Assembly (NCBI GenBank): GCA_021776795.1
Contig: JAJFFC010000008.1
Coordinates: 314,738-378,737, forward strand
Direction of reading: 5' to 3'
DNA from: Planctomycetota bacterium
GTDB taxonomy: Bacteria > Planctomycetota > UBA1135
Length of the DNA: 64,000 nt
The stretch's first letter is position 1. Each line of letters starts with the position of its first letter. Below the pieces are notes generated by a model. It did not search any database. It saw nothing but the letters and a program-made list of their open reading frames with translations, and was not told the origin of the DNA. The position numbers were made by a program, and so were the translations under genes. Below, one piece after another: positions 634 to 30,394 of the stretch.

Positions 634-2169
634 CTAACGGAAGAAGGTTCCATCGAAATTTGTAGCACCCTTACGTTCAGAATCAGGTTTAAGAAGGATT
701 GAATGCGTGGCGCCAGATTCTTGATTGAATAGCTTAATTCTAACCGGAGCATGAGGAGTAAGGCATGATAGCGTCAAAATTTCTTCTCCAGAATTCTCTG
801 AGGAAATGTGACATTCGGAATTAAACCAAGGCGGCGAAACCGCCCAATCATACCTGTGTGTTTTCGCTAATAATACCGGACTCTGAGCATCACTAACAAG
901 ATCCTGGATTCTCTGATCGAACTCAGTTGTCACCTTTACATGATACTGTTCTTTTTTTCTGCCCCATGAACCTTCCCCAGTCCATGTTATTGTGTGTTCA
1001 AACAACTGCGGCCGCTGCAATATTTTTGTTCCAATATTAACGGTGTACTCTCCTTTGAGCATTTCAACATTTATGGGGTATTCCCAGAATGATGCACGTA
1101 ATTCTGTCACTGGAGCATTTACTTGATAGGCATTTGCCGTCAAATCCACAACAAAATTTCCTGCTGGGATTCCAGTAATCTCAAAAAAACCCAGGTCATC
1201 CGTAATGGCAGTGGAAAATGAATCTCCATAGGCCAATTCAATTGGGCGGCAAACAACTTCTAAATCGGTAAATGGTGAACCAAATTGGTCAATGACCCGA
1301 CCAACAATACTTGAATCTCCAATTTCCGATTTAAGATCCCCCAGAAAAACATTCTGTTTCTCCTCGAATCGAAATGGAGGAAAACTCCTTACTAGTTGGC
1401 CTTTGTACTGAGGGAATTTCTTAACGTTTAATACCACAGAAACTTCTACCCAACCAGGTGGGCAGCCTTCAATACTGAAATCGCCGTTCAAATCGGTGAG
1501 TGCACCTTCGGTGTAACCTCCCCGACCAGGAGCAATCCTTGAATACGCTGACACAGATGCCTCTGGTATTGGATTCCCTAGAAAATCTACGACTCTGCCC
1601 TGAATGCGCCCATATTCAAAAACCAGAATGTTCTTTTCATTACTCTTGCCGCCAGTTTGTCCATCAAGAATCACTAAGGCTTTCTCGTAGTCAGGTCTTG
1701 ATAATCCCAACTCACCTGGATTCCATTCTGAAGATGAGGGTCGAAGATTTGGAGGCAGTGTTGTTTTCCACACGATAAGCTCGTACTTACCAATAGAAAG
1801 ATTGGTAAAGCGGAATTCCCCCTTTTCCCCAGAAAATTGAGAATCTCGAGATTGGAATTCTTCAAGATCTCCTCTCCATTTGAACAATTCTACCTTTGCA
1901 TTAGCCACTGGAGTCCTCCCAATGTTCTGGAGAACTCGGCCATGAATTTCAAAAACAGGGTCATTTAGGCGAGCATCTGATTTCTTGTTTCGAGAAACGC
2001 CATTTCCTTCGATTGGAATGCCTGATTCTCCAATCGACCCGGCGGCAATCTGCCGCCGGGTTTCTTTTTGAGGGGTATCGACCATAGCTCCTCTTTTCAA
2101 GTTAAACAGCCACATGCAAAGAAAGACGGTAAGTAGTGCGATGCCCACCGCAGCATGCGAAATCTTCAT
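634..2169 (-). CDS. N-terminally anchored protein with carboxypeptidase-regulatory-like (CarboxypepD_reg) repeats
   Basis: N-terminal TM helix; repeated IxGRVxDxxGxP...TDxxGxF beta-sandwich motifs; AT-rich DNA; ATG directly abuts upstream TAA. Confidence 0.7.
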   Translation of the reverse strand: MKISHAAVGIALLTVFLCMWLFNLKRGAMVDTPQKETRRQIAAGSIGESGIPIEGNGVSRNKKSDARLNDPVFEIHGRVLQNIGRTPVANAKVELFKWRGDLEEFQSRDSQFSGEKGEFRFTNLSIGKYELIVWKTTLPPNLRPSSSEWNPGELGLSRPDYEKALVILDGQTGGKSNEKNILVFEYGRIQGRVVDFLGNPIPEASVSAYSRIAPGRGGYTEGALTDLNGDFSIEGCPPGWVEVSVVLNVKKFPQYKGQLVRSFPPFRFEEKQNVFLGDLKSEIGDSSIVGRVIDQFGSPFTDLEVVCRPIELAYGDSFSTAITDDLGFFEITGIPAGNFVVDLTANAYQVNAPVTELRASFWEYPINVEMLKGEYTVNIGTKILQRPQLFEHTITWTGEGSWGRKKEQYHVKVTTEFDQRIQDLVSDAQSPVLLAKTHRYDWAVSPPWFNSECHISSENSGEEILTLSCLTPHAPVRIKLFNQESGATHSILLKPDSERKGATNFDGTFFR

Positions 2170-3354
2170 TTATCGCACCACTCCGTCAACTCCATCAACT
2201 CCCTCTTGTGCAGTATCAGGATCCCCAGTGCCAAAAATGCCACCGTCTTTGCCAGATCCAACTGATCCGCTACCACCAGACTTCACGTCTCCACCATTTC
2301 CACCATCACCTCCATCAGTAGGATTTTGGCCGCTACCTCCACAGCCACCTTCGCCACCATCACCACCGGAACCGTTTAGGGTATTGCCGCCTTTGCCACC
2401 ATTGCCTGCTTCACCAGCATCAATGCCTTTCTTGACTCCATCACTAGGAGTATCTCCACCTGATCCTCCTTTTCCGCCATCTCCTCCACACCCGGCCATA
2501 CCATCTTTGGAGCCCCCTCCATCACCACCATTGCCTGCATCACCTGCTTCTGCATCAGGTTGATTCTGGAGATTATCACCTCCGTCACCACCCTTTCCTC
2601 CATTTCCTCCTTTGCCGCTCCCTGCAGCAATACCACCATCTCCACCAGCACCTCCTGAGCCTCCAAGGCGGTCGCCTGAGTATGGTGAACCACCAGGATG
2701 GTTCGCCCCATCACCCCCTTTACCGCCGGCACCAGCGTCTCCTGTAGGACCAAAACAATTACCACCATTTCCTCCAGCGCCTCCAGCGCCAGGCGCAATA
2801 AGACCATTCAGGGTGCCTGGATCCAATATTGCCCCTTTTCCTCCGCAGCCGCCTGTGCCTCCTTTGTCATAACCATTCCCGCCATCGCCTCCAGATGCAC
2901 CGTCTGTTGGGTTGCTGCCTAGCTCATCGCTGGCTCCATCAAGCCCCTCGCCACCGTCTCCTCCATTTCCACCATTCAGCCCACTTCTGCCTCCATTGCC
3001 AGCAGAAACCGGACGGACAGCACCTGTTATCCCAGGATCGCCATACCCTCCAGCCCCTCCATTTCCACTATTAACTCCTTTGCCACCATCTCCACCATGC
3101 CCCTTAGGGGGCTTAGGTGCAGAATCATTGGGGCAGGGGGCATTTGCAGGTGTGTCTGCTGGCCAGCCATCTCGACCATGCTCGTCTGCCCCAAGTTCAC
3201 CATCACTTCCAAATTTATAGTTATCTGGATAGAGGTGGTAGGACTTTCGATGGCCACAATCACCAGCACCTGCCCCGCCAGAAAGGCCAAAACTAGCACT
3301 TGACGAAAGAAATCCCATCAATAATACAAATCCAAAAGTCTTGAGTAATGTCAT
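2170..3354 (-). CDS. Secreted glycine-rich repeat protein (PGRS-like GGxGGxGG repeats)
   Basis: Signal peptide MTLLKTFGFVLLMGFLSSSASFG; long GGxGGxG tracts; GAGGAG-like RBS upstream. Confidence 0.75.
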   Translation of the reverse strand: MTLLKTFGFVLLMGFLSSSASFGLSGGAGAGDCGHRKSYHLYPDNYKFGSDGELGADEHGRDGWPADTPANAPCPNDSAPKPPKGHGGDGGKGVNSGNGGAGGYGDPGITGAVRPVSAGNGGRSGLNGGNGGDGGEGLDGASDELGSNPTDGASGGDGGNGYDKGGTGGCGGKGAILDPGTLNGLIAPGAGGAGGNGGNCFGPTGDAGAGGKGGDGANHPGGSPYSGDRLGGSGGAGGDGGIAAGSGKGGNGGKGGDGGDNLQNQPDAEAGDAGNGGDGGGSKDGMAGCGGDGGKGGSGGDTPSDGVKKGIDAGEAGNGGKGGNTLNGSGGDGGEGGCGGSGQNPTDGGDGGNGGDVKSGGSGSVGSGKDGGIFGTGDPDTAQEGVDGVDGVVR

Positions 3355-12077: not shown

Positions 12078-13286
12078 ATGGAGTCTTCCCCTGCCGATGT
12101 CGTCGTCATTGGTGCCGGTATTGTCGGCCTAGCTACCGCCTATCGGCTGCTCCAAGATCGCCCCGGCATTTCGCTGGTGGTGCTCGAAAAGGAAGATGGC
12201 CCTGCTCACCACCAAACTGGCCATAACTCTGGGGTGCTGCATTCCGGCATTTACTACAAGCCGGGGAGCTACAAGGCGCGCAATTGTCGCGAAGGCAAGG
12301 AAATGATGGAAGCCTTTTGCCGTGAGCAGGAGATTCCTTTTGAGACCTGTGGCAAGGTGATTGTGGCGATTGAAGAGGCCGAGTTGCCTTTGCTCGACAA
12401 CATCTTTCAGCGCGGCCAGGAGAACGGCGTCGACTGCGCGATGATTTCCAAAGAGGAGCTCGCCGAGATTGAGCCGCACGCCGCTGGCATCAAAGCAATC
12501 AAGGTTCCCGAAGCCGGCATTGTCGATTACAAAGAAGTGTGCCGACGCCTTGCCGAAAAGGTGACCTCTGCTGGCCAAAAGATTGTTTATGGCGCCAAGG
12601 TACGCGCGCTGGTCGAGGCTGGCTCAGAGGTGGTGGTGCAATCCACTGCCGGAGATTTCCGCAGCAAGGCGGTGGTCAACTGCGCCGGTCTACATAACGA
12701 CCGCGTCACCGCCATGAGTGGTGCCAAGCCGCCAGCGCGCATCGTTCCTTTCCGCGGTGAGTATTACGAACTGACGCCGCAAGCGAAGCACTTGTGCAAG
12801 CATTTGATTTACCCAGTGCCTGATCCGAATTTCCCCTTCCTAGGGGTGCACTTCACGCGCATGATTGACGGCAGCGTGGAATGCGGTCCCAATGCGGTGT
12901 TGGCGCTCGCGCGCGAAGGCTATACGTGGGGCGACATCAACCTCAAAGACCTCGGCGGGACGCTGACCTACGGCGGCTTTTGGAAGATGATTGCCAAGCA
13001 TTGGAGAACCGGCTTCGGAGAAATGCACCGTTCCCTATCCAAGGCGGCGTTCACCAAGGCACTCTCACGCCTGATGCCGGAAATTCGCTCGGAGCACTTG
13101 GTCAAGGCTCCCGCTGGCGTGCGCGCGCAGGCGCTGATGCCCGATGGCCTCGCCATCGACGATTTCCTGTTCCAAGAAAACGGCCAAGTATTGAACGTGT
13201 GCAACGCACCTAGCCCCGCGGCGACCAGCAGCCTGTCGATTGCTAAGGCGATTGTCGAACGCCTAGCGCCAACCCTAGACCGCTAG
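12078..13286 (+). CDS. lhgO: L-2-hydroxyglutarate oxidase
   Basis: GAGIVG FAD motif; [37 protein letters not shown]. Confidence 0.9.
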
Positions 13287-15034
13287 TGATCCGAAGGGAT
13301 TGGCGGCGCCGGGTTCAGCGCCTCTAAGACAAGTTGCGCATGCTGCAAGGTGCCAGCCTTCACGTTGACCATCGAGTCACCGCTAAAGCTCATGGCTGGG
13401 GGGCCAAATGCTTTTGCGCCCATGTCGCCGAGCACCACGCGATAGTTCCCTTCGGGCAAATCTAATAGGAGGTTGGATTGGCGACGCCCCTCGATATCTG
13501 GAAGGGTTAAGCGCAAATACTCCTCGGGCAACACCTGGCCCTCGAGAGGCTCGAGCCGGTACTCCAACTGCCACCCACGGCCTTCTGGAGGCATGAGCAG
13601 GTCTAAGCGCAAACTGCCGACCCCATCAAGGCGGGACATGGTGGCTTGGCTACGCAGGATTTGGACCTCTTGCGTGAGCTGAACCGGCAAGACCAGCGGG
13701 ACATATCCCTCTGCGTTCACGCGCCATTCCAGGTTCAAGCCAGCTGCGGGAATCGCTCCCGGCCACACCATGTACACCTGATCCGGTGGTAAACGGAAAC
13801 GGCTATGCAAGAAGGGACTCAGGCTATTGGGCGCCACCAGTCCCGTGGAAACCCAAAGCGGACGCGAAGAGGATTTCGTGGGCCATTGCAGATCCAGGTA
13901 GAGAACTTTGGTCGCCATTTCCAAACGAACTCCCAAGTCTCCTGCGCGCAAAGCCAGCACTCGTTCGCCATGTTGTTGCAGGGGGATATTCAAGGGCAGA
14001 GGACCGTTGGCTTCTCCCATGAAGGCACTCACCGAATACATGCCCGGCGGCAGGCCATGGAAGGCAAAGGCACCGTCCTTTTCCGTCTCGGCCCCCACTG
14101 GGTGGTAGGCGCCGATGGTGTCACCAGCCTCAATTCTGCGCATCAGATGAAGCCGCACGTTCTCCACAGGAACGCCATGTAAGTCGAGTACTTGACCGCT
14201 AATGCTCAGCCCCGGATTTAATCGCAGTTGTCCATGATCTTCGCGGGCCAAGGAAACATCGAGCCCTCCTGTGGGATGCAAAATACGCAACTGGGAAGGT
14301 GGCTCCTCCTCGCTGCGCGGCAAACGGAAGTAGCCCTCGGGGCTTGCCCACCCCATGAGGATGCCATCGACATGTAACTCGGCCATGGCCGCTGGCTCAC
14401 CTGAGGGCGTGAGGATTTGGCCTGCCGAAGTCGACAAGTTGCGTGGCAAACGTACCATCCATTCGCCGCGGTTCGGTAAGTCGGAAGCCGGGCGGGCATC
14501 GGCCAACTCGGGGTGGCGCAACATCAGCTCTAAATCGACGAAGCCCAATTGCACGGCCATGCGCCCCATGGCCTCGGGAAGGATGGCACCGGGAATAGCA
14601 AAGCGACCATCCTCGTCAGCAGTGCCCGTGGCCACTGGTTCCTCGGCCTTGGGCGGACGGGTGCGCCCACCCATGGCTGAAGAATCTCGCTTCCACACCG
14701 CATACTTCACGCCGGCGAAGGGGCGTCCGCGCTCATCCACCACCTGGACCGGAATGTCATCGGTACCGCTCCCAGGTGGCAGGATCTGCCCCGCGGTCGC
14801 AATCTGGTCTTCGCGCTGAGGGCTTAACTCCGGGGCAAGGTCACCCAAATCAGGGCCTGGCGCCGGGCTTTGGCCGAATTCGCCCTCTCCCGCCTCAACT
14901 AGAGGTTCTGAGCCACTAGGGCCGGGGGATTGTGGCCGATTCGGCTCCAAACCACCCCACAGCCACCAGCCAATCGCCCCCAAAAGGAGGAGCAGCGGCA
15001 GGAGAACGGCAAGAGGGCGAGCTGAGGAGGTCAT
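13283..15034 (-). CDS. Membrane-anchored CarboxypepD_reg-like repeat protein
   Basis: N-terminal TM, Pro-rich linker, [10 protein letters not shown] and [12 protein letters not shown] motifs. Confidence 0.65.
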
Positions 15035-15106
15035 ATTGCAGGGGGCCACCCCATTATGCCGATAGGTAGGGGCTTCACCGCGCCTTTCCGGTTGACAGCG
15101 TTCTCC

Positions 15107-17755
<2,649 letters not shown>

Positions 17756-20352: not shown

Positions 20353-21387
20353 ATGAAAGTCCTCATCACCGGCCATCGCGGCTATATCGGCGCTCACGCC
20401 ATCGACGTTTTTCAGGCCGCCGGCCACCAAGTCATGGGAGTCGATATCGGCCTCTACGACGGCGTGGAGTTCGGCACCCCGGCCGTAGCCGATGAAGACC
20501 TGACCCTAGATGTCTTCGACATCACTCCAGAGATGCTCAAAGGCGTAGACGCGGTGGTTCATTTGGCCGCGATTTCCAATGACCCTATGGGTGATTTGGA
20601 TCCGCGCATTACCCACCACATCAATACCGGTGGCACCATGCATGTCGCCCGCGCCGCCAAGGAGGCTGGTGTGCCGCGTTTCTTGTTTGCGAGTTCATGC
20701 TCGATTTACGGCGCTGCCGGCGACAAGATTCTCGATGAAAGCGCCGAGTTCACGCCGGTTTCGGCCTATGCCGAGTCCAAGGTCAACGCCGAGGCCGAGC
20801 TGAAGGAACTCGAGAGTGATGATTTTGCCATCACCTATCTGCGCAACTCCACGGCTTACGGCCAGAGCCCGCGCCTGCGCACCGACTTGGCGGTCAACAA
20901 CTTGTTGGCCTTTGCGGTGAGCATCAATGAAGTGAAGCTGATGTCCGATGGCTCTTCGTGGCGCCCCTTGGTCCACTGCCGTGACATCGCCCGTGCTTTC
21001 TTGGCCTTGTCCGAAGCGCCAATCGAAGATGTCCGCGGCTTGGCCGTGAATGTCGGCGGCAACGACGACAACTACCAGATTCGCGAGGTCGCTGAAATCG
21101 TGCACCGCAATGTCGACGGTTCCGAAATCACCATTGCCGAAACCGCAGTGACCGATCCGCGCAACTATCGCGTGTCCTTCGACCTGCTCAACCAGAAGCT
21201 GCCCGAGTTCAAGCTTGAATGGTCGGTGCGCTCGGCGGTGCCGGTCATGTTCAGCGAATACAAAGAGCGCGATGGCTTCGCCTCGGAATTTGAGGGCGGT
21301 CGCTACACGCGTTTGATCACCCTCCAAGGCAAGATGGCCGATGGCGCCCTGCCTGAATACTTCACCGAACTTTCGAAGAAAGACTAG
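20353..21387 (+). CDS. NAD-dependent nucleotide-sugar epimerase/dehydratase
   Basis: TGHRGYIG, HLAAISND, YAESK. Confidence 0.88.
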   Translation: MKVLITGHRGYIGAHAIDVFQAAGHQVMGVDIGLYDGVEFGTPAVADEDLTLDVFDITPEMLKGVDAVVHLAAISNDPMGDLDPRITHHINTGGTMHVARAAKEAGVPRFLFASSCSIYGAAGDKILDESAEFTPVSAYAESKVNAEAELKELESDDFAITYLRNSTAYGQSPRLRTDLAVNNLLAFAVSINEVKLMSDGSSWRPLVHCRDIARAFLALSEAPIEDVRGLAVNVGGNDDNYQIREVAEIVHRNVDGSEITIAETAVTDPRNYRVSFDLLNQKLPEFKLEWSVRSAVPVMFSEYKERDGFASEFEGGRYTRLITLQGKMADGALPEYFTELSKKD

Positions 21388-21389
21388 AG

Positions 21390-21875
21390 ATGAGCGACGA
21401 CGTCATGAAACTCACCCAGGGCTCCAAGATTGAAGGAGTCTACGTGCAGCCGCTACGCAAGATTTGCGATGAGCGCGGCATGATCATGCACATGTTCCGC
21501 TGCGACAGCCCGATCTTCCAGAAGTTTGGCGAGGTCTACTTTTCGCAGTCGATGCCCGGCGCGATTAAGGGCTGGCACATTCACCGCGAACAGACCCAGC
21601 ACTATGCCGTCATCCAAGGCATGATTAAGTTGGTGTTGTGCGACCTGCGCGAAGACTCGCCTTCCAAGGGTGTGATCGAAGAGCACTTCCTCGGCGAGGA
21701 CAACTACTGCCTGATCCGCATTCCAGTTGGCGTGGCAAATGGCTACAAGACCTACGGCACCAAGCCAGCTCTCACCTGCAACTGCTCCGACCAGCCACAC
21801 GGCGCTCCCGAAATGGACCGCATCGATCCCTTCTCCGACGAGATCGATTACGACTGGGACCTGAAGCACATGTAA
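21390..21875 (+). CDS. rfbC: dTDP-4-dehydrorhamnose 3,5-epimerase family (cupin)
   Basis: DERG, GAIKGWHIH, DLREDSPS, IPVGVANGY. Confidence 0.8.
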   Translation: MSDDVMKLTQGSKIEGVYVQPLRKICDERGMIMHMFRCDSPIFQKFGEVYFSQSMPGAIKGWHIHREQTQHYAVIQGMIKLVLCDLREDSPSKGVIEEHFLGEDNYCLIRIPVGVANGYKTYGTKPALTCNCSDQPHGAPEMDRIDPFSDEIDYDWDLKHM

Positions 21876-21953
21876 ACCCTGCGGTTTACCTTGCCAAAGC
21901 CCGCTGACTTAGTCGTCAGCGGGCTTTCTTGTTGTTGTTATGCTGCTCTTATG
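21758..21953 (+). repeat. Direct repeat copy R1: rfbC 3' end, terminator, extended -10 and ATG
   Basis: Aligns to 24497-24669 and 26581-26724. Confidence 0.95.
21896..21930 (+). terminator. rfbC terminator (also present in R2 and R3)
   Basis: 13-bp stem AAAGCCCGCTGAC / GTCAGCGGGCTTT followed by T-rich tail. Confidence 0.8.
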
Positions 21954-24494
21954 TCACGCCATTGGATTGCTATGGTCCTAGGCGGCCTCCTTATCGCCGC
22001 AATTGTGGTGGTGGCATGGCCAGCTGAGGAAAACGAGAAGCCTCAGAATCCAACTCCCTACCCACAAGCTTCCGCCGTCACATTTCCTTCTCATGATGAG
22101 GCCCCATTCTCAGACATCTCCCCAGAAGAGAACAATAATTCCACTGAGATTACGCGGGAAGAGCCTCGAATCAATGACGACTGGATTTCGATAGATTTCA
22201 TTCATGAGGAAACAGGCCGCCCTGTTCCTTTTGCCGAAATTTATCTTTATCGATTAGAGAGCCGAGAAAGTAAAAGTATTTCCGGAAGAATTGGTTCTGA
22301 AGTTGCCAAGGAACTGGCAATGTGGGGCCAATTGTTTCGCACGGATGAGAATGGCAAGCTAAAGCTGTCCCGCATCCAGGACCCCGTTGCCATCACAGCA
22401 GTTGGAGAGAATTGTTACGCTCATTTTCCGCGCCTTAACCTGAATGAACCCCGTGGCGCACTGGGCTTACGCCCCAATCGGGTGATTCCAGTGAGCGTGC
22501 AGGATTATCAAGGGAGCGGCGTTGAGCATGCCTTTGTTTCCCTTCATTTCCAAATGGCGACTGGATTCAGCTTTCCGCTGTTCATTGGCCAAACGGGAGC
22601 CAATGGTACGATTTTCATTCCTATCCTTGATCGCTATTCCCGGAATCAGGAGCTGAAAATCGTCCTCCATTCCTTTTCCAATCAAGAGAATATTGTGACT
22701 GTCGCAAAGCTCCAGCAAGAGGACCGCCCGGTGACCTTTCTTTTCCCGGACCCAAGTGAACTCAAAATCCAATTCCAAGCGCCACAACTGCCTGATGCAC
22801 CTGCATATTTTGTTCTCCGTGATATTGCCTACCTGGATCATCCCTCATTATCGAATACCCTAACCCCAGGTTTTCTATTTCCTCCCGAGCATACGATTGC
22901 TGTTTCTGCGAAATCCAGATCCCTGATTCTGAATGGGTACATCCTTAGCCGGGGATTACACGCCGAAGTTTCTTTGGTCACTCCAAGCGCAAAAGGAACT
23001 ACTGTCGAGGTTCCCATGGAGTTCTCCATGGAGTATCCGGCTGTTTCGGGTCGAATTCTTAACGAAGACGGCGTAATTGGAAGAAATCTAAACCTCCAGT
23101 ACGCCTATCGCTATCCCGGCCTACCAAGCACCCGACAGCCAACAGAGGGAATCCCCCTTTCGACAAATGACGAGGGCATTTTTGAGATTCTTGTGCCCAA
23201 TTGGAATCAGCAAGGGTTGCTGAGAAAGTTTCTCGTGGTCATCCCGCGCACGAGGAGCAAGCCAGAGCGCTTCGCCGAGGTAGACCTCAGTCAACCCTTA
23301 CCTAAGGAAGTGAAGGATCTCGGTGATCTTATCTTGCGACCCTCCCCGGTCCTTGCCAGCGGCAGAGTCGTTGATCGAGATGGAATACCAATCCAAGATG
23401 CGCTGATTCGCATTCCCTCTGAAGATTCACGGTCGTATAAAAGTGGAGTCTCAGGCGCTGGACTGTATGCAGAAACCAATCAAGATGGCGCGTTTCTATT
23501 GCGAGGGGTGTTCCTCGAAGATCTGAAGAGCATCCGTTGCGACCATCGGTACTTTCGAACGGTAGATATCTCCGTATTAGATGGTTCTCATAATCTCAAC
23601 ATCACCTTAGAAAGAACCGTGGAGGTACGTGGGAGAGTTCTAGTCGATCGATTTATCAATGAATCGGACCTCATGATTAATTTGTATTTCCGCGAATCGA
23701 AGAATCCAGACCATGAAAGTTCCACAAGGACGATTCCAGATAGGAGAGGGAAATTCCAAATCATTGGTGCCTATGGCGACGAATCGATCCTCGAAATAGT
23801 CAATATCACTGATTATGAGAATACGTTTGTCCTGTATTCCACTCTTGTACCCAACTTGGACCAAGGAGAAGACATTGATCTCGGTACGATTGACCTGCGA
23901 GGAAAACTTCGCCAATACCATGTTTCTGTTTTGAATCAAGAGGGAGACATGCCGCGCGATGCATGGATTCATCACCCAGAATCCCCGCCAGGGAATGCAC
24001 AGTCTATTTCGCTATGGAAAATGGAATACTCCCTCTATGGTCCCTCCGAAGGCTTGCCGATACTTGTTGGTGCTGATGGATATCGGACGCAAAGCCTGGT
24101 ACTGCGAGAACAAAAATCAACGGTAGAGCTGCTAAAGGGACCAGACATTTCAATTCACGCCAAGGGCTTACCAGAGCTTCCCTCTAGGTACCGCTATCAA
24201 CTCAAAATGATCTCCCTTCCGGGTGGCGCGAAGCGAAATGGTGAATTGCAACAGCTATATAGTACGAGCCAACACTTTGAAGGGTCTACCGGACTTATAG
24301 GAGACTGCACGCTGGAAATCTCCTTGGAATCAAATCGACCAGGAATTTCAAATGGCGCCATCTTCGTTCCCCTTCTTCGGCTACCCATTAAGGATGCCGA
24401 TTCCCGCCTGCATATACCCAATCAAATGAGCGGCATTTCCATCGAATTAGATTTGTCCGAGGCCACTGCCATTGTCCTAGACGCCATCGAGTAG
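21951..24494 (+). CDS. Membrane-anchored CarboxypepD_reg-like repeat protein (cargo A)
   Basis: MSRHWIAMVLGGLLIAAIVVVAW anchor; ASGRVVDRDGIP-type repeats; AT-richer than flanks. Confidence 0.7.
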   Translation: MSRHWIAMVLGGLLIAAIVVVAWPAEENEKPQNPTPYPQASAVTFPSHDEAPFSDISPEENNNSTEITREEPRINDDWISIDFIHEETGRPVPFAEIYLYRLESRESKSISGRIGSEVAKELAMWGQLFRTDENGKLKLSRIQDPVAITAVGENCYAHFPRLNLNEPRGALGLRPNRVIPVSVQDYQGSGVEHAFVSLHFQMATGFSFPLFIGQTGANGTIFIPILDRYSRNQELKIVLHSFSNQENIVTVAKLQQEDRPVTFLFPDPSELKIQFQAPQLPDAPAYFVLRDIAYLDHPSLSNTLTPGFLFPPEHTIAVSAKSRSLILNGYILSRGLHAEVSLVTPSAKGTTVEVPMEFSMEYPAVSGRILNEDGVIGRNLNLQYAYRYPGLPSTRQPTEGIPLSTNDEGIFEILVPNWNQQGLLRKFLVVIPRTRSKPERFAEVDLSQPLPKEVKDLGDLILRPSPVLASGRVVDRDGIPIQDALIRIPSEDSRSYKSGVSGAGLYAETNQDGAFLLRGVFLEDLKSIRCDHRYFRTVDISVLDGSHNLNITLERTVEVRGRVLVDRFINESDLMINLYFRESKNPDHESSTRTIPDRRGKFQIIGAYGDESILEIVNITDYENTFVLYSTLVPNLDQGEDIDLGTIDLRGKLRQYHVSVLNQEGDMPRDAWIHHPESPPGNAQSISLWKMEYSLYGPSEGLPILVGADGYRTQSLVLREQKSTVELLKGPDISIHAKGLPELPSRYRYQLKMISLPGGAKRNGELQQLYSTSQHFEGSTGLIGDCTLEISLESNRPGISNGAIFVPLLRLPIKDADSRLHIPNQMSGISIELDLSEATAIVLDAIE

Positions 24495-24496
24495 AT

Positions 24497-24669
24497 CACC
24501 AAGCCCGCCCTGATCTGCAACTGCTCCGACCAGCCCCACGGCGCTCCAGAAGTGGACCGCATCGATCCCTTCTCCGACGAGATCGATTACGACTGGGACC
24601 TGAAGCACATGTAAATCCTGCGGTTTGCCTTGCCAAAGCCCGCTGACTTAGTCGTCACCGGGCTTTCTT
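24497..24669 (+). repeat. Direct repeat copy R2 (orphan rfbC 3' end and terminator)
   Basis: 173-bp ungapped match to 21758-21930 with about 10 substitutions; begins 2 nt after the cargo A stop. Confidence 0.95.
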
Positions 24670-24713
24670 TTCTCCTACCGTTGACTCAGGATTTCCTGTC
24701 TGCCTAAGGGACA

Positions 24714-25610
24714 TTAATCTGCATATTCAAGCATTTCTTCTGTGAGATTTTTGGAGTTTAGGATCGAGACATTCTGGAAAATGGCTTCCAACCACCCTGA
24801 AACCCCAAGCCAATCAACATCTGGAAAGGAGGAATCGATTATCTTGGCTTCTCGGATTTTCGTGAACGAAAAATTTGCACCCCTAAATTCACAATCCTTG
24901 ATTTCAGTTCCAACAAATGAAGATTCCGAAAAATCGACCTCTCTAGCAATCATTCCACTTAATAGGCATTGATCAAAAACTGCTCCGATTGCCGTTCCTC
25001 TCAAAAATAAAATATTCACAATCTTTGCCTCTCTTGCATCGAGGTAATCCCAGTTTGCGCCTGACGCATTACTTTTATCGTCAAGACTGTGTCCCCTGAT
25101 AATCAACTCTCCGACCTGCATTCGAGACAAATCGATACCCTCAAGACTGCAATCAATGAAGGATATGGAGGCGCCCTCTGCACCACTGAAATTGGCATCT
25201 GCCAAATTACAATCCCTAAACACAAGGTCCCCAAATTGGGTGTGAGAAAAATCAGCACCCCCAACATCCACTTTTGTCATCGTCAAATCACCAAGGTCTG
25301 CCCCCTCAACACTAAGACCATTTAAACTGGCGTCCGTATCTGCAAGCAATTGGATTGCATTTGTTCTGCCTCGATCGCCTTTTTCTCCGCTGGCCAGACC
25401 AATTAGAATCCAGGCCTGATGTTGAACTCCAGATTGTCGATCGGCGCATTCACGCATAAACTGACTTAGAGCAATAAGCAACGAGAATGGCGCCAGGACA
25501 GCTACCAATTTGATTAGCCAAAATTTCTCTAACCATTGAACCACTTTGGTCCACCAATTGGCGGAGAATATTGCCCAAATTCCTCGTATTCTTCCCATCT
25601 CTTCTGTCAC
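24714..25610 (-). CDS. Membrane-anchored pentapeptide repeat protein
   Basis: ADLGD/ADFSH/ANFSG/ANFSF pentapeptide units; N-terminal TM; very AT-rich. Confidence 0.75.
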   Translation of the reverse strand: MTEEMGRIRGIWAIFSANWWTKVVQWLEKFWLIKLVAVLAPFSLLIALSQFMRECADRQSGVQHQAWILIGLASGEKGDRGRTNAIQLLADTDASLNGLSVEGADLGDLTMTKVDVGGADFSHTQFGDLVFRDCNLADANFSGAEGASISFIDCSLEGIDLSRMQVGELIIRGHSLDDKSNASGANWDYLDAREAKIVNILFLRGTAIGAVFDQCLLSGMIAREVDFSESSFVGTEIKDCEFRGANFSFTKIREAKIIDSSFPDVDWLGVSGWLEAIFQNVSILNSKNLTEEMLEYAD

Positions 25611-25637
25611 CCTATCAGTACCATTAGTCCAAGAACA

Positions 25638-26576
25638 ATGGATTCGCCCTCGAACATACCAACTATTGCATTACTAATCACCCTTATCCCTCTTTCCTGT
25701 TCTGCGCCAGAAATAGATATGGCGACCGAGAGTGGTTACCAAGAGGGCCCTGTCCCTCCCCACACCCTTGAACATCTCTCCCCAGTTGACCCTTCCAAGG
25801 AGCATGACGCCTTTCTCTCTGAGATCAGAGAGAGGCTGGGAATCCCAGAAAAGATAGACGGATTCCAAGCCCAAATCTTTGTCAGAGAAAGAGGGTTGCA
25901 TCCAAGGGAGATAAATTTAAATCTCTCCTACAGAGATCGGCATGGTGGGATGGTTAGGTTCTCACTTGAGACCCAATCCTCAGTACTTGAAAAAGACTGG
26001 TTTGGCTATTCCTCTCCAGAAGGTTATTGGAAAGGCCACAGAGACAACAATGGATCATGGGTCGAGACCCGGCTCCTCAGGTCCGGAGAGGAGGTCGACG
26101 GCATCGATGACTTCATTATCCTTGGCGAAGAAATTGCTTCAGTTCTTGCCTTGCCAACCTTCCTGAATGCTCTTTCATCGGCGAACCACTTTACTGATGA
26201 CGCTGGCCTATTAGTCTTGGCAGGCATTCGTCGGTTTGGAAACGAAGAATGGGTTCATCAATTCGCATTTAGTCCCGGCTCATATCGACCCGTTAGGCTA
26301 GTCATTTTTCCTCCTATTGATTCCAGATTTTTTAGCAAGCCATTATTTGATGAGGACGCTCAACGAACGCGGCATGCATTGTTGCAAGAAGACGGAAGCA
26401 TTATTATTGATTTTTCAAATCCACAAGACTTCGACGGGATCATCCTCCCAGCAACCTTTACCGTTCGCGGAAACAACGAGGAAATTGAAGAAGTGATTAT
26501 TGAAGTCCACCACCTTGCCTGGAAAGTTCCTCCCAAACAGGATTATTTTATGTTTCCGGGGGAGCTTCCTGAATAG
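25638..26576 (+). CDS. Hypothetical lipoprotein
   Basis: Hydrophobic stretch ending LIPLSC (lipobox-like); long open frame. Confidence 0.6.
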   Translation: MDSPSNIPTIALLITLIPLSCSAPEIDMATESGYQEGPVPPHTLEHLSPVDPSKEHDAFLSEIRERLGIPEKIDGFQAQIFVRERGLHPREINLNLSYRDRHGGMVRFSLETQSSVLEKDWFGYSSPEGYWKGHRDNNGSWVETRLLRSGEEVDGIDDFIILGEEIASVLALPTFLNALSSANHFTDDAGLLVLAGIRRFGNEEWVHQFAFSPGSYRPVRLVIFPPIDSRFFSKPLFDEDAQRTRHALLQEDGSIIIDFSNPQDFDGIILPATFTVRGNNEEIEEVIIEVHHLAWKVPPKQDYFMFPGELPE

Positions 26577-26580
26577 GCAA

Positions 26581-26724
26581 GAAATGGACCGCATCGATCC
26601 CTTCTCCGACGAGATCGATTACGACTGGGACCTGAAGCACATGTAAACCCTGCGGTTTGCCGTGCCAAAGCCCGCTGACTTAGTCGTCAGCGGGCTTTCT
26701 TGTTGTTGTTATGCTGCTCTTATG
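26581..26724 (+). repeat. Direct repeat copy R3 (rfbC 3' end, terminator, extended -10 and ATG)
   Basis: 144-bp match to 21810-21953 with 2 mismatches; begins 4 nt after the upstream stop. Confidence 0.95.
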
Positions 26725-28269
26725 CCAAAGCTCTGGCTAACAACCTTATTCAGCGGATGCTGCCTAAGCGCAAGTGCGCTTCTCCCCTCGTGCCCATATG
26801 TAACGGCTGCCGAACAAAGCCCACAGGACAGCAATCCTACCTTCCGTGGCATCATTCAATATGAAGGGGACCACACCGTGGACCGTGCGGAGCTAAGTTA
26901 CGCCATTCGCGAAGTAAATGGCCGCAACTGGGACATTGCCAAGGGCACCTTTCTCACCGACGGCTCAGGAAATTTTTCCTTCACTCCGGAGGCAGATTGG
27001 AAACCAGGGAGAAAGGTCATCCTGGTGGTGACCTATCCAGCCAATGTGAGTCAACCCATGCTTGGTGCTGAAATAGACATCAGTGCCTATCTCCAAGGTG
27101 GCGAGCCAGATCTGGGAGCAATCGAGATTCACCAGCCATTGCCGATTGCCTACGGTCGGGTCACGACGCAAACAGGCGATCCCATTGCCCATGCCAAGAT
27201 CGCGCTCATGCAGGGAAATCCCGATACCCCAATCGATTTCACCTTTGGTCCACCCCCCTTGATTGTGGGATACACGGATGAAAATGGAGAGTTCGGGCTG
27301 AACGCCTTCCGACTGGAACCTGACTTAATGCTATTCGTCGATGCCGAGGGCTATCTGCCTCAACAAGTTGGCTTACCGACTGTCACGGGCAACGTCGATT
27401 TGTCTCTACTTCCTGGCTGGAGAATGCACGGGTCGATTTGGCTTGGGGAACCACAGCCAAACTCCATCACGATGAGAATCATTGGCGCAGACTCCAGCCA
27501 ACGATTGCCTTTTGACCGTGCACGCGCGGATGGAGGCGGTGAATTCTCCTTTTCTGATGATTTTCCTCCTGGGAAATATGCTCTGATTTCAGAAGACATC
27601 ACTGGCTTTCGCCATGAGTTTGAACTTGGGCCTGAAGGAGGATTACATGACCTTGGTGTGTTTGATTTAGCTGGCAAAGTCACCTTTGTCACCATTCATG
27701 TGACTGACCAGGATGGCGAAGCCCCCTTGTTTCTCCATGCACAAGATGAAGATGGGCGTTGGCAAGGAAATGAACATGATGGCGCCATTGCACTCACCCT
27801 ATTTGGGGATCCTCCACCGATTTACATCGGAGGCAGAAACACAAAATGGGTGAGAGTGGACAATCCCAAAGATGGCATGAAGGTTGTGTTAGAGCCAGGA
27901 TTGCCTGTAAAGCTCAAGTTAAAGCCAATCCCCAAATTCCCACCGGGCTGGGGAGTCCATGCAACATTGACCAGCATGGAGACAGACCGACCCTTCACCA
28001 GCATGACCATTTCCTGGAACCTGCACCGCGGTATCGTTAGGCCGCCATTCCCTGGGAAATATCAATGTGAGTTGTACGCCTATGACTTTGCAGGGCTTGG
28101 GCAAAATGGCTATGGAGGCATCGAATCGGTTGGCATTCCCGTTTCTGACCCTGGCAGTCCTCTAGAAGTAATCATTGAAGACACCACCGAGCCTCAAATC
28201 ATCTACTTAGAGCTTCCCCAAGAACAACTAGACGCGATGGAGAAGGCCATCGCCGAGCGGAATTCTTGA
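26722..28269 (+). CDS. Exported CarboxypepD_reg-like protein (cargo B), distant paralogue of cargo A C-terminal part
   Basis: Signal-like N-terminus; DLGAIEI..AYGRVTTQTGDPIAHAKI and DLGVFDLAGK match cargo A blocks. Confidence 0.7.
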   Translation: MPKLWLTTLFSGCCLSASALLPSCPYVTAAEQSPQDSNPTFRGIIQYEGDHTVDRAELSYAIREVNGRNWDIAKGTFLTDGSGNFSFTPEADWKPGRKVILVVTYPANVSQPMLGAEIDISAYLQGGEPDLGAIEIHQPLPIAYGRVTTQTGDPIAHAKIALMQGNPDTPIDFTFGPPPLIVGYTDENGEFGLNAFRLEPDLMLFVDAEGYLPQQVGLPTVTGNVDLSLLPGWRMHGSIWLGEPQPNSITMRIIGADSSQRLPFDRARADGGGEFSFSDDFPPGKYALISEDITGFRHEFELGPEGGLHDLGVFDLAGKVTFVTIHVTDQDGEAPLFLHAQDEDGRWQGNEHDGAIALTLFGDPPPIYIGGRNTKWVRVDNPKDGMKVVLEPGLPVKLKLKPIPKFPPGWGVHATLTSMETDRPFTSMTISWNLHRGIVRPPFPGKYQCELYAYDFAGLGQNGYGGIESVGIPVSDPGSPLEVIIEDTTEPQIIYLELPQEQLDAMEKAIAERNS

Positions 28270-28321: not shown

Positions 28322-30394
28322 TCAATCCGCTAGCTGAAAAAACCCTTCAGCCACTTCAACGCCAAGGTCGACGGATGTCACCGTGGAGTAAATGCTGCCA
28401 ATCATGGGGTTGGCGAAGCGAATCTGAGTTTTGTGGGGAAGCAGCATTCCGGAGACATCGCGAAAATCATCGAAGCGGATGCGCAGGCCCATCATGCCCA
28501 TGCCGTCCATGAGCTTGACCACGTCCTCGCCCAAGACTCGTCCGCTCTCTGCATCGACGAAATAGGTGGGAGCTGGTGCAGAGGTGTCACCGGCACGGAC
28601 CAGATAAAGGGTTTTGCCTCCTCGCTCCAGACGTTGGATGACCTGCATTTTCTCGTGCCATTGGCTCCAATCTCCGAACCGAGCAAAATAACTATCCAAG
28701 CGCTGTTGTTCCTCTCGCAAACCATCCAGGACCTGGGCGGAAACCGTAGATGATTGGTAGCGCGCGACTTTGCCATCGAAAGCCGCGCTCTCAAAGGAGC
28801 CATTGACGCTTCCATCGCTACGAAATTGGTTGGGCCAGGCATAGGTATTGGAAAATGACCCCGTCGCTTGCATGGTGCGCAGGTCAATCTCGCCTTCCGT
28901 TCGCATTGGCCCAAGCGATTCCAGTAAATCTATACGATGAGTTTTGGCAATGGTTCTAGCGAGTTCCTCCACACTGGGCAGGTCCGCCGATGGCGTAAAG
29001 CGGAACTCGTGGTGATCTCCGCTAGAAAAGCCACTGATCTCGCCGTCGGCAGAGCGATCGAATGTAATGATTTCACTGGGGTTCGGGAGTAGCTTCCAGC
29101 GGTCATTGCCGAGGTAACCCAATGGCACGATTCCCTTGCCATGAATCTCTAGCGCAAGCCCTTCCCCATCACGCACCATCGCACGATAGGAGTCATCATC
29201 GTGCTCCCAGTAGTAGCCGAGGTATTCCTCCAAGGGTGGCTGAGCTTGCTCTTCGGCAGGGATAATCCCTAGGAATAACTCTGCGAGCACTTCGCCGACG
29301 CGCATTCCGGTTTGCGTCCCGCGCGATTGGGTGAAGTAAAACACCATGACGTCTTGCTCAGGGAAGACCCAGGCATGGGTGCCATCGGAACCATTGTGAC
29401 CAAAGACCACGACTTCAGGAGCCTTGGTCGGGTCGTCGGCATTTTCTCTGGACAAGACGGTCATCAGGTAGCCATAGCCGAAGGTCAGGCTTGGAATTTC
29501 ACTTGGTGAGCCGGAAGAAAACGGGCTTGGCACCAAGGCCTTTTTCATAAGGTCAGAATTCAGCAGCGCAACGCCATCGACGACGCCGTGATTCTTCCAG
29601 AACGCCATAAAGCGGGCATAATCTGCCGCCGTGGAATACAAACCCTGCGAGCCGAGGAAGAAAGGAAATAAGGGTGGCTGACTCGGGTCCCAAAAGCGGG
29701 TCCAGTTCTCCTTGGAGCCTACATATTTGCTCACGCCACGCGCGCGCAAGGGATTCCCCTCATCCATCACACAGACACTATCCTTCATGCCCAAAGGCTC
29801 CAGGATTCGAGTGGTGACAAAGTCGGCGGCGGGCATTCCGCTGACGACCTCAACCACGGCGGTCAAGGTGTCCGTGCCCTGATCGCTGTAGTGAAATTCG
29901 GTTCCCGGCTCCGAAAGCAACTCTCCCCCGGCACCCATCATCGCCACGGCCTGGATACCGTCAATCGCCTTTAAGTCAGCGGTCATGATCATCGACATCG
30001 ACATGCCACTGGTGTGAGTCAGCAATTGTTCGATGGTGATGTCGCGCGTGGACTCAGCCTCGAAGGCGGGCAAGAAATTCGATACGCGGTCGTCCAGCGC
30101 AATTTTGCCCTCTTCAATCAGCATCAAAATCGAGGTTCCGATGAGTGGCTTCGTCATCGAACGAACGCAAAACACACTGTCCGGGGTCAACTTGGTTTCG
30201 CTTTCTTGGTCGCGCCATCCATAGGCCTCATGAAGAATGGGCGCTCCCCCTTTCATCACGAGCAATTCCGCGCCGACGATTTCCTCCTCGGCAACCAACG
30301 AGGCAACAAGTTGTTCAAGCTTGCTCAGATCCTGGACCTGTTCGGTCTGGATCGGCAGGGCAAGGAGCAGAAGGGAAAGTAAGGGTTGAATCAT
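28322..30394 (-). CDS. Serine hydrolase, beta-lactamase/AmpC-like family, with C-terminal extension
   Basis: SMTK (SxxK), LLTHTSG, FHYSD, GHNG; signal peptide. Confidence 0.85.
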   Translation of the reverse strand: MIQPLLSLLLLALPIQTEQVQDLSKLEQLVASLVAEEEIVGAELLVMKGGAPILHEAYGWRDQESETKLTPDSVFCVRSMTKPLIGTSILMLIEEGKIALDDRVSNFLPAFEAESTRDITIEQLLTHTSGMSMSMIMTADLKAIDGIQAVAMMGAGGELLSEPGTEFHYSDQGTDTLTAVVEVVSGMPAADFVTTRILEPLGMKDSVCVMDEGNPLRARGVSKYVGSKENWTRFWDPSQPPLFPFFLGSQGLYSTAADYARFMAFWKNHGVVDGVALLNSDLMKKALVPSPFSSGSPSEIPSLTFGYGYLMTVLSRENADDPTKAPEVVVFGHNGSDGTHAWVFPEQDVMVFYFTQSRGTQTGMRVGEVLAELFLGIIPAEEQAQPPLEEYLGYYWEHDDDSYRAMVRDGEGLALEIHGKGIVPLGYLGNDRWKLLPNPSEIITFDRSADGEISGFSSGDHHEFRFTPSADLPSVEELARTIAKTHRIDLLESLGPMRTEGEIDLRTMQATGSFSNTYAWPNQFRSDGSVNGSFESAAFDGKVARYQSSTVSAQVLDGLREEQQRLDSYFARFGDWSQWHEKMQVIQRLERGGKTLYLVRAGDTSAPAPTYFVDAESGRVLGEDVVKLMDGMGMMGLRIRFDDFRDVSGMLLPHKTQIRFANPMIGSIYSTVTSVDLGVEVAEGFFQLAD

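Follow-up and report, generated by a model that had tools for sequence, protein, structure and literature searches.

Introduction

Several described systems add or exchange genes at set places in bacterial chromosomes. In "Candidatus Actinomarinales," additive flexible genomic islands are marked by partial tRNA direct repeats (PMC7771536), and integrative elements of the Islander type restore their target, with the displaced fragment directly repeated where the element ends (PMC4383910). Displacement arrays of type VI secretion system (T6SS) effector-immunity, Rhs, and contact-dependent inhibition (CDI) genes take up alleles from other strains, and homology-facilitated illegitimate recombination (HFIR) has been proposed for them (PMC5361080). 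At hotspots of horizontal gene transfer (HGT) without mobile genetic elements (MGEs), a double crossover at the flanking genes has been proposed, which replaces content (PMC5635113). Insertion-duplication in Escherichia coli works through a circle: when linearized DNA with homology on one side was used, 56 of 60 clones yielded a PCR product diagnostic for a duplicated target, the duplications measured 109 to 950 bp in 14 sequenced clones, and the circle route, from which they came, was ten times more frequent than HFIR (PMC3240628). Two more papers give further background only (PMC2884548 and PMC2568036). Here we describe a stretch of 64,000 nucleotides (nt) from a Planctomycetota genome (C29:314738-378737 of host genome G000, which is 3.26 Mb and 89% complete; hereafter the window, whose coordinates are used for the array), in which the 3' end of the RmlC/RfbC-like sugar epimerase gene rfbC occurs three times around cargo genes. 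These scars, and others like them in the same genome, probably arose as genes were gained from related lineages through ordinary recombination and not through an integrase.

The rfbC array resembles these systems in part. As in displacement arrays, older genes are shifted downstream by serial additions next to a conserved anchor, and fragments of genes stay behind. In those arrays the fragment belongs to the variable toxin gene (PMC5361080), whereas the fragments described here derive from an unrelated core neighbor, from either its tail or its head, and the cargo is whole. The array shares with the MGE-free hotspots variable slots between core genes, the lack of an integrase, and recombination in flanking genes; unlike the replacing double crossover, the scars point to an additive step (PMC5635113). 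A restored target with the displaced fragment as a far-end direct repeat recalls integrative elements (PMC4383910), although there is no integrase inside the repeats and no fixed core. The same slot holds different genes among relatives at rfbC, as in an additive flexible genomic island, but the Actinomarinales islands target tRNAs (PMC7771536), while the scars in this genome lie mostly at protein-coding 3' and 5' ends, and the island that two core genes enclose is extended from either flank. The serial order is cassette-like, as in integrons, but the rfbC array has no integrase and no attC site. Finally, the E. coli case is a laboratory conjugation construct (PMC3240628), whereas the present events are natural, fixed, and serial, affect about 12 loci with allele-level divergence, left scars of 31 to 331 bp, and may have involved a circular intermediate. 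HFIR is characterized by deletion of recipient DNA and by 3 to 10 bp of microhomology at the joint.

Results

A preliminary description, made from the sequence alone, had placed the rfbC 3' end plus its terminator at three sites, and we found direct copies at all three, R1, R2, and R3 (Table 1). R3 is identical to R1 at 142 of 144 nt, through the ATG of the next gene as described, and R2 shares 94.2% identity with R1 across 173 nt. The offsets among the copies are 2739, 4771, and 2032 nt. As had also been noted, R2 starts 2 nt and R3 starts 4 nt past the stop codon of the preceding gene (TAG in both); within the rfbC tail these two starts lie 52 nt apart, in unrelated sequence. There was no fourth copy of the rfbC tail in the 3.26-Mb genome, where the next best match had an E value of 0.19. 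The 13-pair terminator-like hairpin is present in R1 and R3, and judging from its A-run and T-run, it is likely bidirectional in R1. An Rfam scan gave no matches. Derivation of the cargo A TAG from a mutated rfbC TAC was rejected, since it requires 3 changes in 6 nt.

The same kind of scar was found elsewhere in the genome. Self-comparison, which the preliminary description had proposed, returned about a dozen further direct repeats of a 3' or 5' gene end or a tRNA, 31 to 331 nt long and 1 to 4.5 kb apart, around mostly lower-GC cargo; partial target duplications of variable length (31 to 331 bp) thus surround inserts at about 12 loci. The scan was run on 20-kb pieces and gave 25 rows in 3.26 Mb, with 12 kept and 13 dropped by hand (9 attC type, 1 contig end, and 3 intragenic or paralogous); one kept row, C11:460/4658, is doubtful. 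The hosts include genes for a DegT aminotransferase, an acyl-CoA synthetase, an acyl-CoA dehydrogenase, two ABC permeases, tRNA-Phe, tRNA-Pro, and a heavy-metal ATPase-like protein (recognized by eye), and the cargo belongs to carboxypeptidase-regulatory-like or FG-GAP families or to none. A partial or whole tRNA repeat occurs only at C9 tRNA-Phe and C27 tRNA-Pro. None of the 54 proteins scanned at scar loci belongs to an integrase family, and 15 junction contexts showed no shared motif by eye and no reuse of a fixed crossover core. These results support the earlier idea of a gene end as a repeated landing site for added genes without an integrase at the site. They do not support a cassette array dedicated to rfbC, since about 12 unrelated loci carry the same scar and no relative has rfbC duplicates.

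The genes that flank these scars either abut one another in relatives or enclose a different number of cargo genes from the same families. The ABC permease slot holds 0, 0, 1, at least 1, and 3 cargo genes in five genomes, a hypothetical gene (hyp263) and the DegT gene are adjacent in 2 of 5, and the MBL protein and acyl-CoA synthetase genes are adjacent in 3 of 4. Scans of other DNA gave 3 rows in 1.04 Mb from the sister genus (1 of them an unclear candidate), 4 rows in 0.4 Mb from two distant genomes (none clear), and 4 rows in 1.97 Mb of rfbC neighborhoods of other bacteria, including a seemingly clear 5'-end case (L135). Enrichment of scars in the host genome over sister-genus DNA was not established (Poisson P = 0.10). 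Our literature search, in which most subscription journals were missing, returned no account of natural genomes in which protein-coding gene ends are duplicated genome-wide without an integrase.

We compared each live copy, within the intact gene, with its dead, displaced copy. The live/dead pairs had 49 synonymous versus 13 nonsynonymous differences over 281 and 967 sites, respectively (pN/pS, 0.08), a tally that sums 12 comparisons, leaves out two third copies, and includes five pairs with 0 or 1 coding difference. A model in which the live copy is purified and the dead copy is neutral gave a P value of 1e-11 (2e-6 with a raised synonymous fraction), and the silent-bias test without one locus in a mobile region gave a P value of 7e-11. 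Neutral decay of self-copies is therefore rejected by the silent bias, even with the live copy under selection, and from the silent excess we conclude that the duplicates are pieces of working alleles from related lineages.

At rfbC, R2 differs from R1 by 5 silent and 2 replacement changes, and 4 of the 5 silent changes match the live gene of a sister lineage (L026). The two replacements private to R2 are as expected of later decay in a displaced copy. A site just past the stop codon is A in R1 and L026 and G in R2 and R3; this split hints, at one site, at a crossover in the 63-nt identical core. The hybrid-copy test with L026 as the one outgroup had 4 silent sites on one side and 1 on the other. 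Divergence from L026 per 250 nt was 0 to 8% over the epimerase-rfbC pair and 5 to 33% upstream, a pattern that fits allele exchange at the locus. On the R1 side, differences from L026 numbered 8 and 5 per 100 nt in 21653-21852 and 0, 0, 2, and 2 in 21253-21652.

None of 16 close-relative loci (80 to 100% amino acid identity; several redundant, and three with under 1 kb downstream of rfbC) had an rfbC-tail duplicate, and among the 12 of 49 family genomes with an orthologous epimerase-rfbC pair, only the host genome has one. The L026 DNA is 87% identical over 10.5 kb and has rfbC, the same hairpin, and then an ortholog of cargo B; it matches window positions 26580-26750 at 93%, from R3 on into cargo B. 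Cargo B is only 41% identical to this ortholog over 275 amino acids, while its neighbors are 97 to 100% identical. Cargo B-like genes follow rfbC in four more relatives (L030, L106, L111, and L112), a cargo A-like gene follows it in L116, and unrelated genes do so in others. Because relatives carry differing genes there, the position behind rfbC is a variable slot; the comparison across relatives that had been suggested thus showed an arrangement that varies. The rfbC-cargo B order in L026 implies that cargo B is the ancestral resident and that cargo A and the pentapeptide/lipoprotein pair are additions. The earlier view of cargo B as a captured gene is therefore not supported. By this comparison, we take cargo B to be a fast-evolving (hypervariable) ancestral resident of the slot and R3 to be the displaced original rfbC-cargo B junction. 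In L109 and L111, the open reading frame (ORF) from the promoter-motif ATG after rfbC stops after 43 and 9 codons, respectively, and the resident cargo B-like gene looks broken or lost.

Table 1. Features of the rfbC array and its flanks in window coordinates
Feature	Position	Strand	Remarks
NAD-dependent epimerase/dehydratase gene, upstream partner of the rfbC-like gene	20353-21387	+	Pfam PF01370; precedes rfbC in close relatives
Intact RmlC/RfbC-like sugar epimerase gene, 161 amino acids, tail duplicated	21390-21875	+	PF00908; below TIGR01221 cutoff
R1	21758-21953	+	Live rfbC tail (last 39 codons with stop), hairpin, candidate promoter motif, ATG of cargo A
Terminator-like hairpin in R1	21896-21927	+	13 pairs; A-run before, T-run after
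TAnnnT -10-like hexamer, 6 nt, then ATG of cargo A	21939-21953	+	Candidate leaderless promoter
Cargo A, 847 amino acids	21951-24494	+	N-terminal hydrophobic segment, carboxypeptidase-regulatory-like domains (Pfam); added gene
R2	24497-24669	+	Dead rfbC tail, hairpin with one stem mismatch; no promoter motif; different allele
Pentapeptide-repeat protein gene, 298 amino acids	24714-25610	-	Pfam; GC 0.44; convergent on R2; added gene
Orphan predicted lipoprotein gene, 313 amino acids	25635-26576	+	No Pfam match; added gene
R3	26581-26724	+	Dead rfbC tail (last 22 codons with stop), hairpin 26667-26698, candidate promoter motif 26710-26715, ATG of cargo B
Cargo B, 515 amino acids	26722-28269	+	Carboxypeptidase-regulatory-like; ancestral, hypervariable resident of slot; ortholog after rfbC in L026
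Beta-lactamase-family serine hydrolase gene, downstream flank	28322-30394	-	PF00144

The similarity of R1 and R3 ends at an ATG, one of the ORF-precise junctions first described. Both copies carry TAnnnT, 6 nt, and ATG, a layout that marks leaderless transcripts, as established in other phyla. Genome-wide, TAnnnT at this spacing precedes 5.25% of start-proximal ATGs (169 of 3221) versus 0.22% of internal ATGs (35 of 15794), an enrichment of about 24-fold that suggests many leaderless transcripts in this Planctomycetota lineage. Behind rfbC, 7 of 12 relative loci show this layout as well, with hexamers of three kinds, and the 5'-type duplicates of DegT and gene121 elsewhere in the genome start just upstream of it. 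A scan for full sigma-70 promoters found no site within the repeats. We think it likely that the motif is a leaderless promoter for cargo A in R1 and for cargo B in R3. The similarity would then end at the ATG because promoter and start codon are conserved and the ORF behind them is hypervariable, and the break does not count as evidence of precise machinery. The proposal that the repeat supplies a terminator and a promoter agrees with the hairpin in the repeat and the likely leaderless promoter and start codon in R1 and R3. We found no literature on leaderless promoters in Planctomycetes in a search that largely excluded subscription journals.

The cargo genes, predicted to encode envelope proteins, are AT-richer than their surroundings, as first observed (GC of 0.44 to 0.52 and third-position GC [GC3] of 0.40 to 0.53, versus 0.55 to 0.60 and 0.64 to 0.80 for the flanking genes). 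Cargo A spans exactly ATG to stop, plus 2 nt before R2, and truncation at the joint was rejected, as its C terminus aligns with homologs. Cargo A and cargo B are distant homologs (22% over 342 amino acids) without DNA similarity, and relatives of cargo A (22 to 28%) lie at or near the rfbC slot in L109, L111, and L116. The pentapeptide-repeat protein falls far below Qnr and other equivalog cutoffs, and the feature look-alikes of the lipoprotein (DUF6503/DUF2092/DUF4292) offer a lead only. The rfbC-like product scores 42 bits against a cutoff of 155.75 for the rmlC equivalog (TIGR01221), and the epimerase-rfbC pair has a near-full-length match in only 12 of 49 family genomes, so the label "housekeeping" was too strong. 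Its closest titled relatives are from Planctomycetota metagenome-assembled genomes (MAGs). In the same window, at 634-3354 on the minus strand, a glycine-rich repeat protein gene (394 amino acids, GGxGGxGG type) is followed by a gene for a 511-amino-acid carboxypeptidase-regulatory-like protein, and a further family member lies at 13283-15154.

As had been described, no recombinase accompanies the array: a Pfam scan of 29 distinct window proteins (12 and 22 in two overlapping sets) gave no recombinase family, and the five tyrosine recombinases and one serine recombinase of the genome are all on contigs other than that of the array. The window contains no tRNA and so no partial tRNA-gene direct repeat at rfbC. 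There is no integron integrase adjoining the array in the window; IntI (TIGR02249, 439 bits) is on C7. BLAST searches for attC-type sites with two attC-type sequences from this genome as queries, run without a covariance model, gave matches on C7, C18, C22, C23, and C30 and none on C29, and the rfbC repeats consist of coding tail plus terminator. By these comparisons, the rfbC array is neither an integron nor an integrase-bearing element. C7:216722-224656 (L199) holds a complete integron, IntI followed by six near-identical 70-nt attC-type repeats. The attC-type sites on C18, C22, C23, and C30 have no nearby integrase match, and among those on C22 lies a 560-amino-acid ORF with a reverse transcriptase domain (C22:3602-5284, PF00078).

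We assessed the assembly with contigs from four read runs (X1 to X4), all of one study that is perhaps the source of the assembly. These contigs cover all array units at similar depth. The joints of cargo A to R2 (X4), R2 to the pentapeptide gene (X1 and X4), and the lipoprotein gene to R3 (X1) are bridged with more than 31 letters per side; the bridge from R1 to cargo A has only 30 letters, and none of the pieces listed reaches across the entire array. Exact identity between copies extends for at most 78 nt, below the final assembly k of 141 suggested by contig-end overlaps of 141 nt. An assembly artifact is unlikely. Four runs from four other studies (X5 to X8) cover the flanks and parts of cargo B (26617-27043 in X6, with 2 differences) and almost nothing of 22002-26588, a gap that we did not count as evidence because no contig joins across it; of the 7 joints seen in these runs, none involves the repeats.

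Several loci in and beyond this genome are described here in their own right. At C29:445317-449960 and C2:62839-66782 (L189 and L188), two genes that are adjacent and convergent in relatives are separated by accessory DNA with one tail duplicate of one gene and two of the other; the contigs break at the repeated ends, and a similar cysteine-containing gene of 193 or 195 amino acids with a partner lies on both sides. At C12:88216-98856 (L186), about 8.7 kb separates hyp263 from the DegT aminotransferase gene, although the two are neighbors in G003 and G023; this interval contains a 3' duplicate of hyp263 and a 5' duplicate of the DegT gene. The whole tRNA-Pro(TGG) is duplicated around two cargo genes at C27:7816-12437, the second copy with an extra base, and contig C16 carries part of this cargo in another version (87% identity), which may be a strain variant or an additional unit. 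In a Proteobacteria MAG (L135:17978-19610), 108 nt of the 5' end of a gene are repeated 1.5 kb upstream of that gene, and by eye the differences seem to fall at third positions; this is a scar of the same type outside Planctomycetota. A whole peroxiredoxin gene is duplicated (86%) at C28:73390-74101 and 83904-84615, 10.5 kb apart, around an operon-like block, and was left out of the scar count. At C29:395549-395650, a 102-nt piece matched no other place in the genome.

Discussion

We favor, with middling confidence, the explanation that integrase-free insertion-duplication produced the array, in which duplicated gene tails bracket the added genes. DNA from a related lineage, comprising the rfbC tail and the variable gene behind it in that lineage, would be circularized and then integrated through a single homologous crossover within the shared tail; it may have reached the cell by transformation, transduction, or vesicles. 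At rfbC this would have happened twice, in either order, once bringing cargo A and once the pentapeptide/lipoprotein pair. Each event would leave rfbC whole, a terminator behind the new gene, and cargo B with its own promoter, and because these are preserved, each insertion would cost the cell little. Filtering would place the joints near stop codons, in that a fragment ending within the cargo would leave a broken gene, and one long enough to include the next shared gene would exchange content instead of adding it. With the repeats in place, RecA would suffice for units to be moved or lost; genes for RecA and ComEC are present in the genome.

Several results weigh against this explanation. No Ku was found in the genome (89% complete), which leaves the end-joining activity without a named candidate, and the E. 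coli precedent involved conjugation, at a frequency of about 4e-9. No donor was found, as searches with cargo A, the pentapeptide protein (E ≤ 1e-10), and the lipoprotein returned only themselves. Six of 10 joints after codirectional cargo lie -2 to 8 nt from its stop codon (2, 4, 8, 4, 1, and -2 nt; the others, 20, 36, 43, and 213 nt), although the probability of such proximity depends on the null model (P values of 0.12 to 0.53 under some and 1e-3 to 6e-6 under others). The ABC permease slot of G051 holds three tandem cargo genes but no gene-end repeats, and arrays of this kind therefore also form or are kept in the absence of a scar; the tRNA-Phe case, which duplicates parts of two convergent genes, fits classical att duplication equally well. 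Finally, the deletions (R1-R2 and R1-R3) and circles suggested for follow-up were not found as joints in the contigs of X1 to X4, which drop rare variants. The R1 × R3 swap put forward earlier would indeed restore the rfbC-cargo B order of L026, but no such joint occurs in the four runs.

Linear HFIR, with the same DNA source and outcome as the circle route but a different topology, is possible though rather unlikely. A donor strand would pair in rfbC upstream of the repeat, the foreign end would be joined illegitimately inside the recipient rfbC tail, and the old tail would be displaced downstream. The divergent patch relative to L026 reaches about 100 nt upstream of the first base of R2 and could be replaced DNA (21653-21757), ComEC is present, and HFIR has been proposed for Vibrio cholerae T6SS arrays (PMC5361080). 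It usually deletes about as much DNA as it inserts, however (PMC3240628), and the one A/G site past the stop codon divides R2 in the way expected of a crossover. We consider it quite unlikely that the scars are remnants or satellites of site-specific integrative elements, whose attP carried a replacement tail and whose integrase was lost or acts in trans. The geometry is that of tRNA islands (PMC4383910), tRNA-Phe and tRNA-Pro are among the cases in this genome, and the genome encodes five tyrosine recombinases and one serine recombinase, but the unrelated starts of R2 and R3, 52 nt apart, and the spread over about 12 unrelated targets, including 5' ends, with no integrase family among the 54 scar-locus proteins, argue otherwise. 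The cargo, 1 to 4.5 kb of the host clade's own envelope families and allelic to same-slot genes of relatives, argues against such elements as well.

The remaining alternatives are weaker. A dedicated, undescribed pathway that joins DNA at ORF ends and duplicates 30 to 330 bp of the target, for example, at the transcript's exit from the ribosome or via an RNA step, seems improbable to us. It would explain the 6 of 10 codirectional joints within -2 to 8 nt of the cargo stop and the extent of cargo A, exactly from ATG to 2 nt past its stop, and a reverse transcriptase and an integron are present in the genome. Against it, the silent divergence shows that the duplicates came from other alleles and were not copied from the target, one unit holds two divergent genes and so not one mRNA, four joints lie 20 to 213 nt from the stop and others on the 5' side of the cargo, the ATG edge has a simpler cause in a leaderless promoter, and the reverse transcriptase lies among attC-type sites on C22. 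It is equally doubtful that integrase-free ORF-end capture into leaderless-promoter slots behind core genes builds cassette-like surface-protein arrays genome-wide; were it true, gene-end scars would mark a general route of gene gain. In-place tandem duplication of the rfbC tail with cargo B, followed by divergence, is very improbable: cargo A and cargo B are distant homologs and cargo B evolves fast (41% identity to the L026 ortholog), but the repeats are 94 to 99% identical while the cargoes, of 847 and 515 amino acids, share no DNA similarity, the middle unit is unrelated, and the differences are silent biased, the last two of which in effect refute this reading. We hold an assembly chimera of strain variants to be just as improbable. 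No single short-read contig spans the array and the four full holders come from one study, but the cargo-to-fragment junctions are bridged at even depth, the longest exact repeat is 78 nt, and R2 has alleles of its own.

Many gene-transfer hotspots lack an integrase, and the proposed double crossover explains the swapping of genes but not their addition (PMC5635113). Gene-end scars with silent divergence provide a countable footprint of the additive step that can be scored in any assembled genome. They mark both joints and show that the donor was a relative, and such countable scars make the growth of MGE-free hotspots testable. Locally, they suggest how an uncultured Planctomycetota lineage stacks fast-evolving surface-protein alleles while leaving the flanking genes unbroken.

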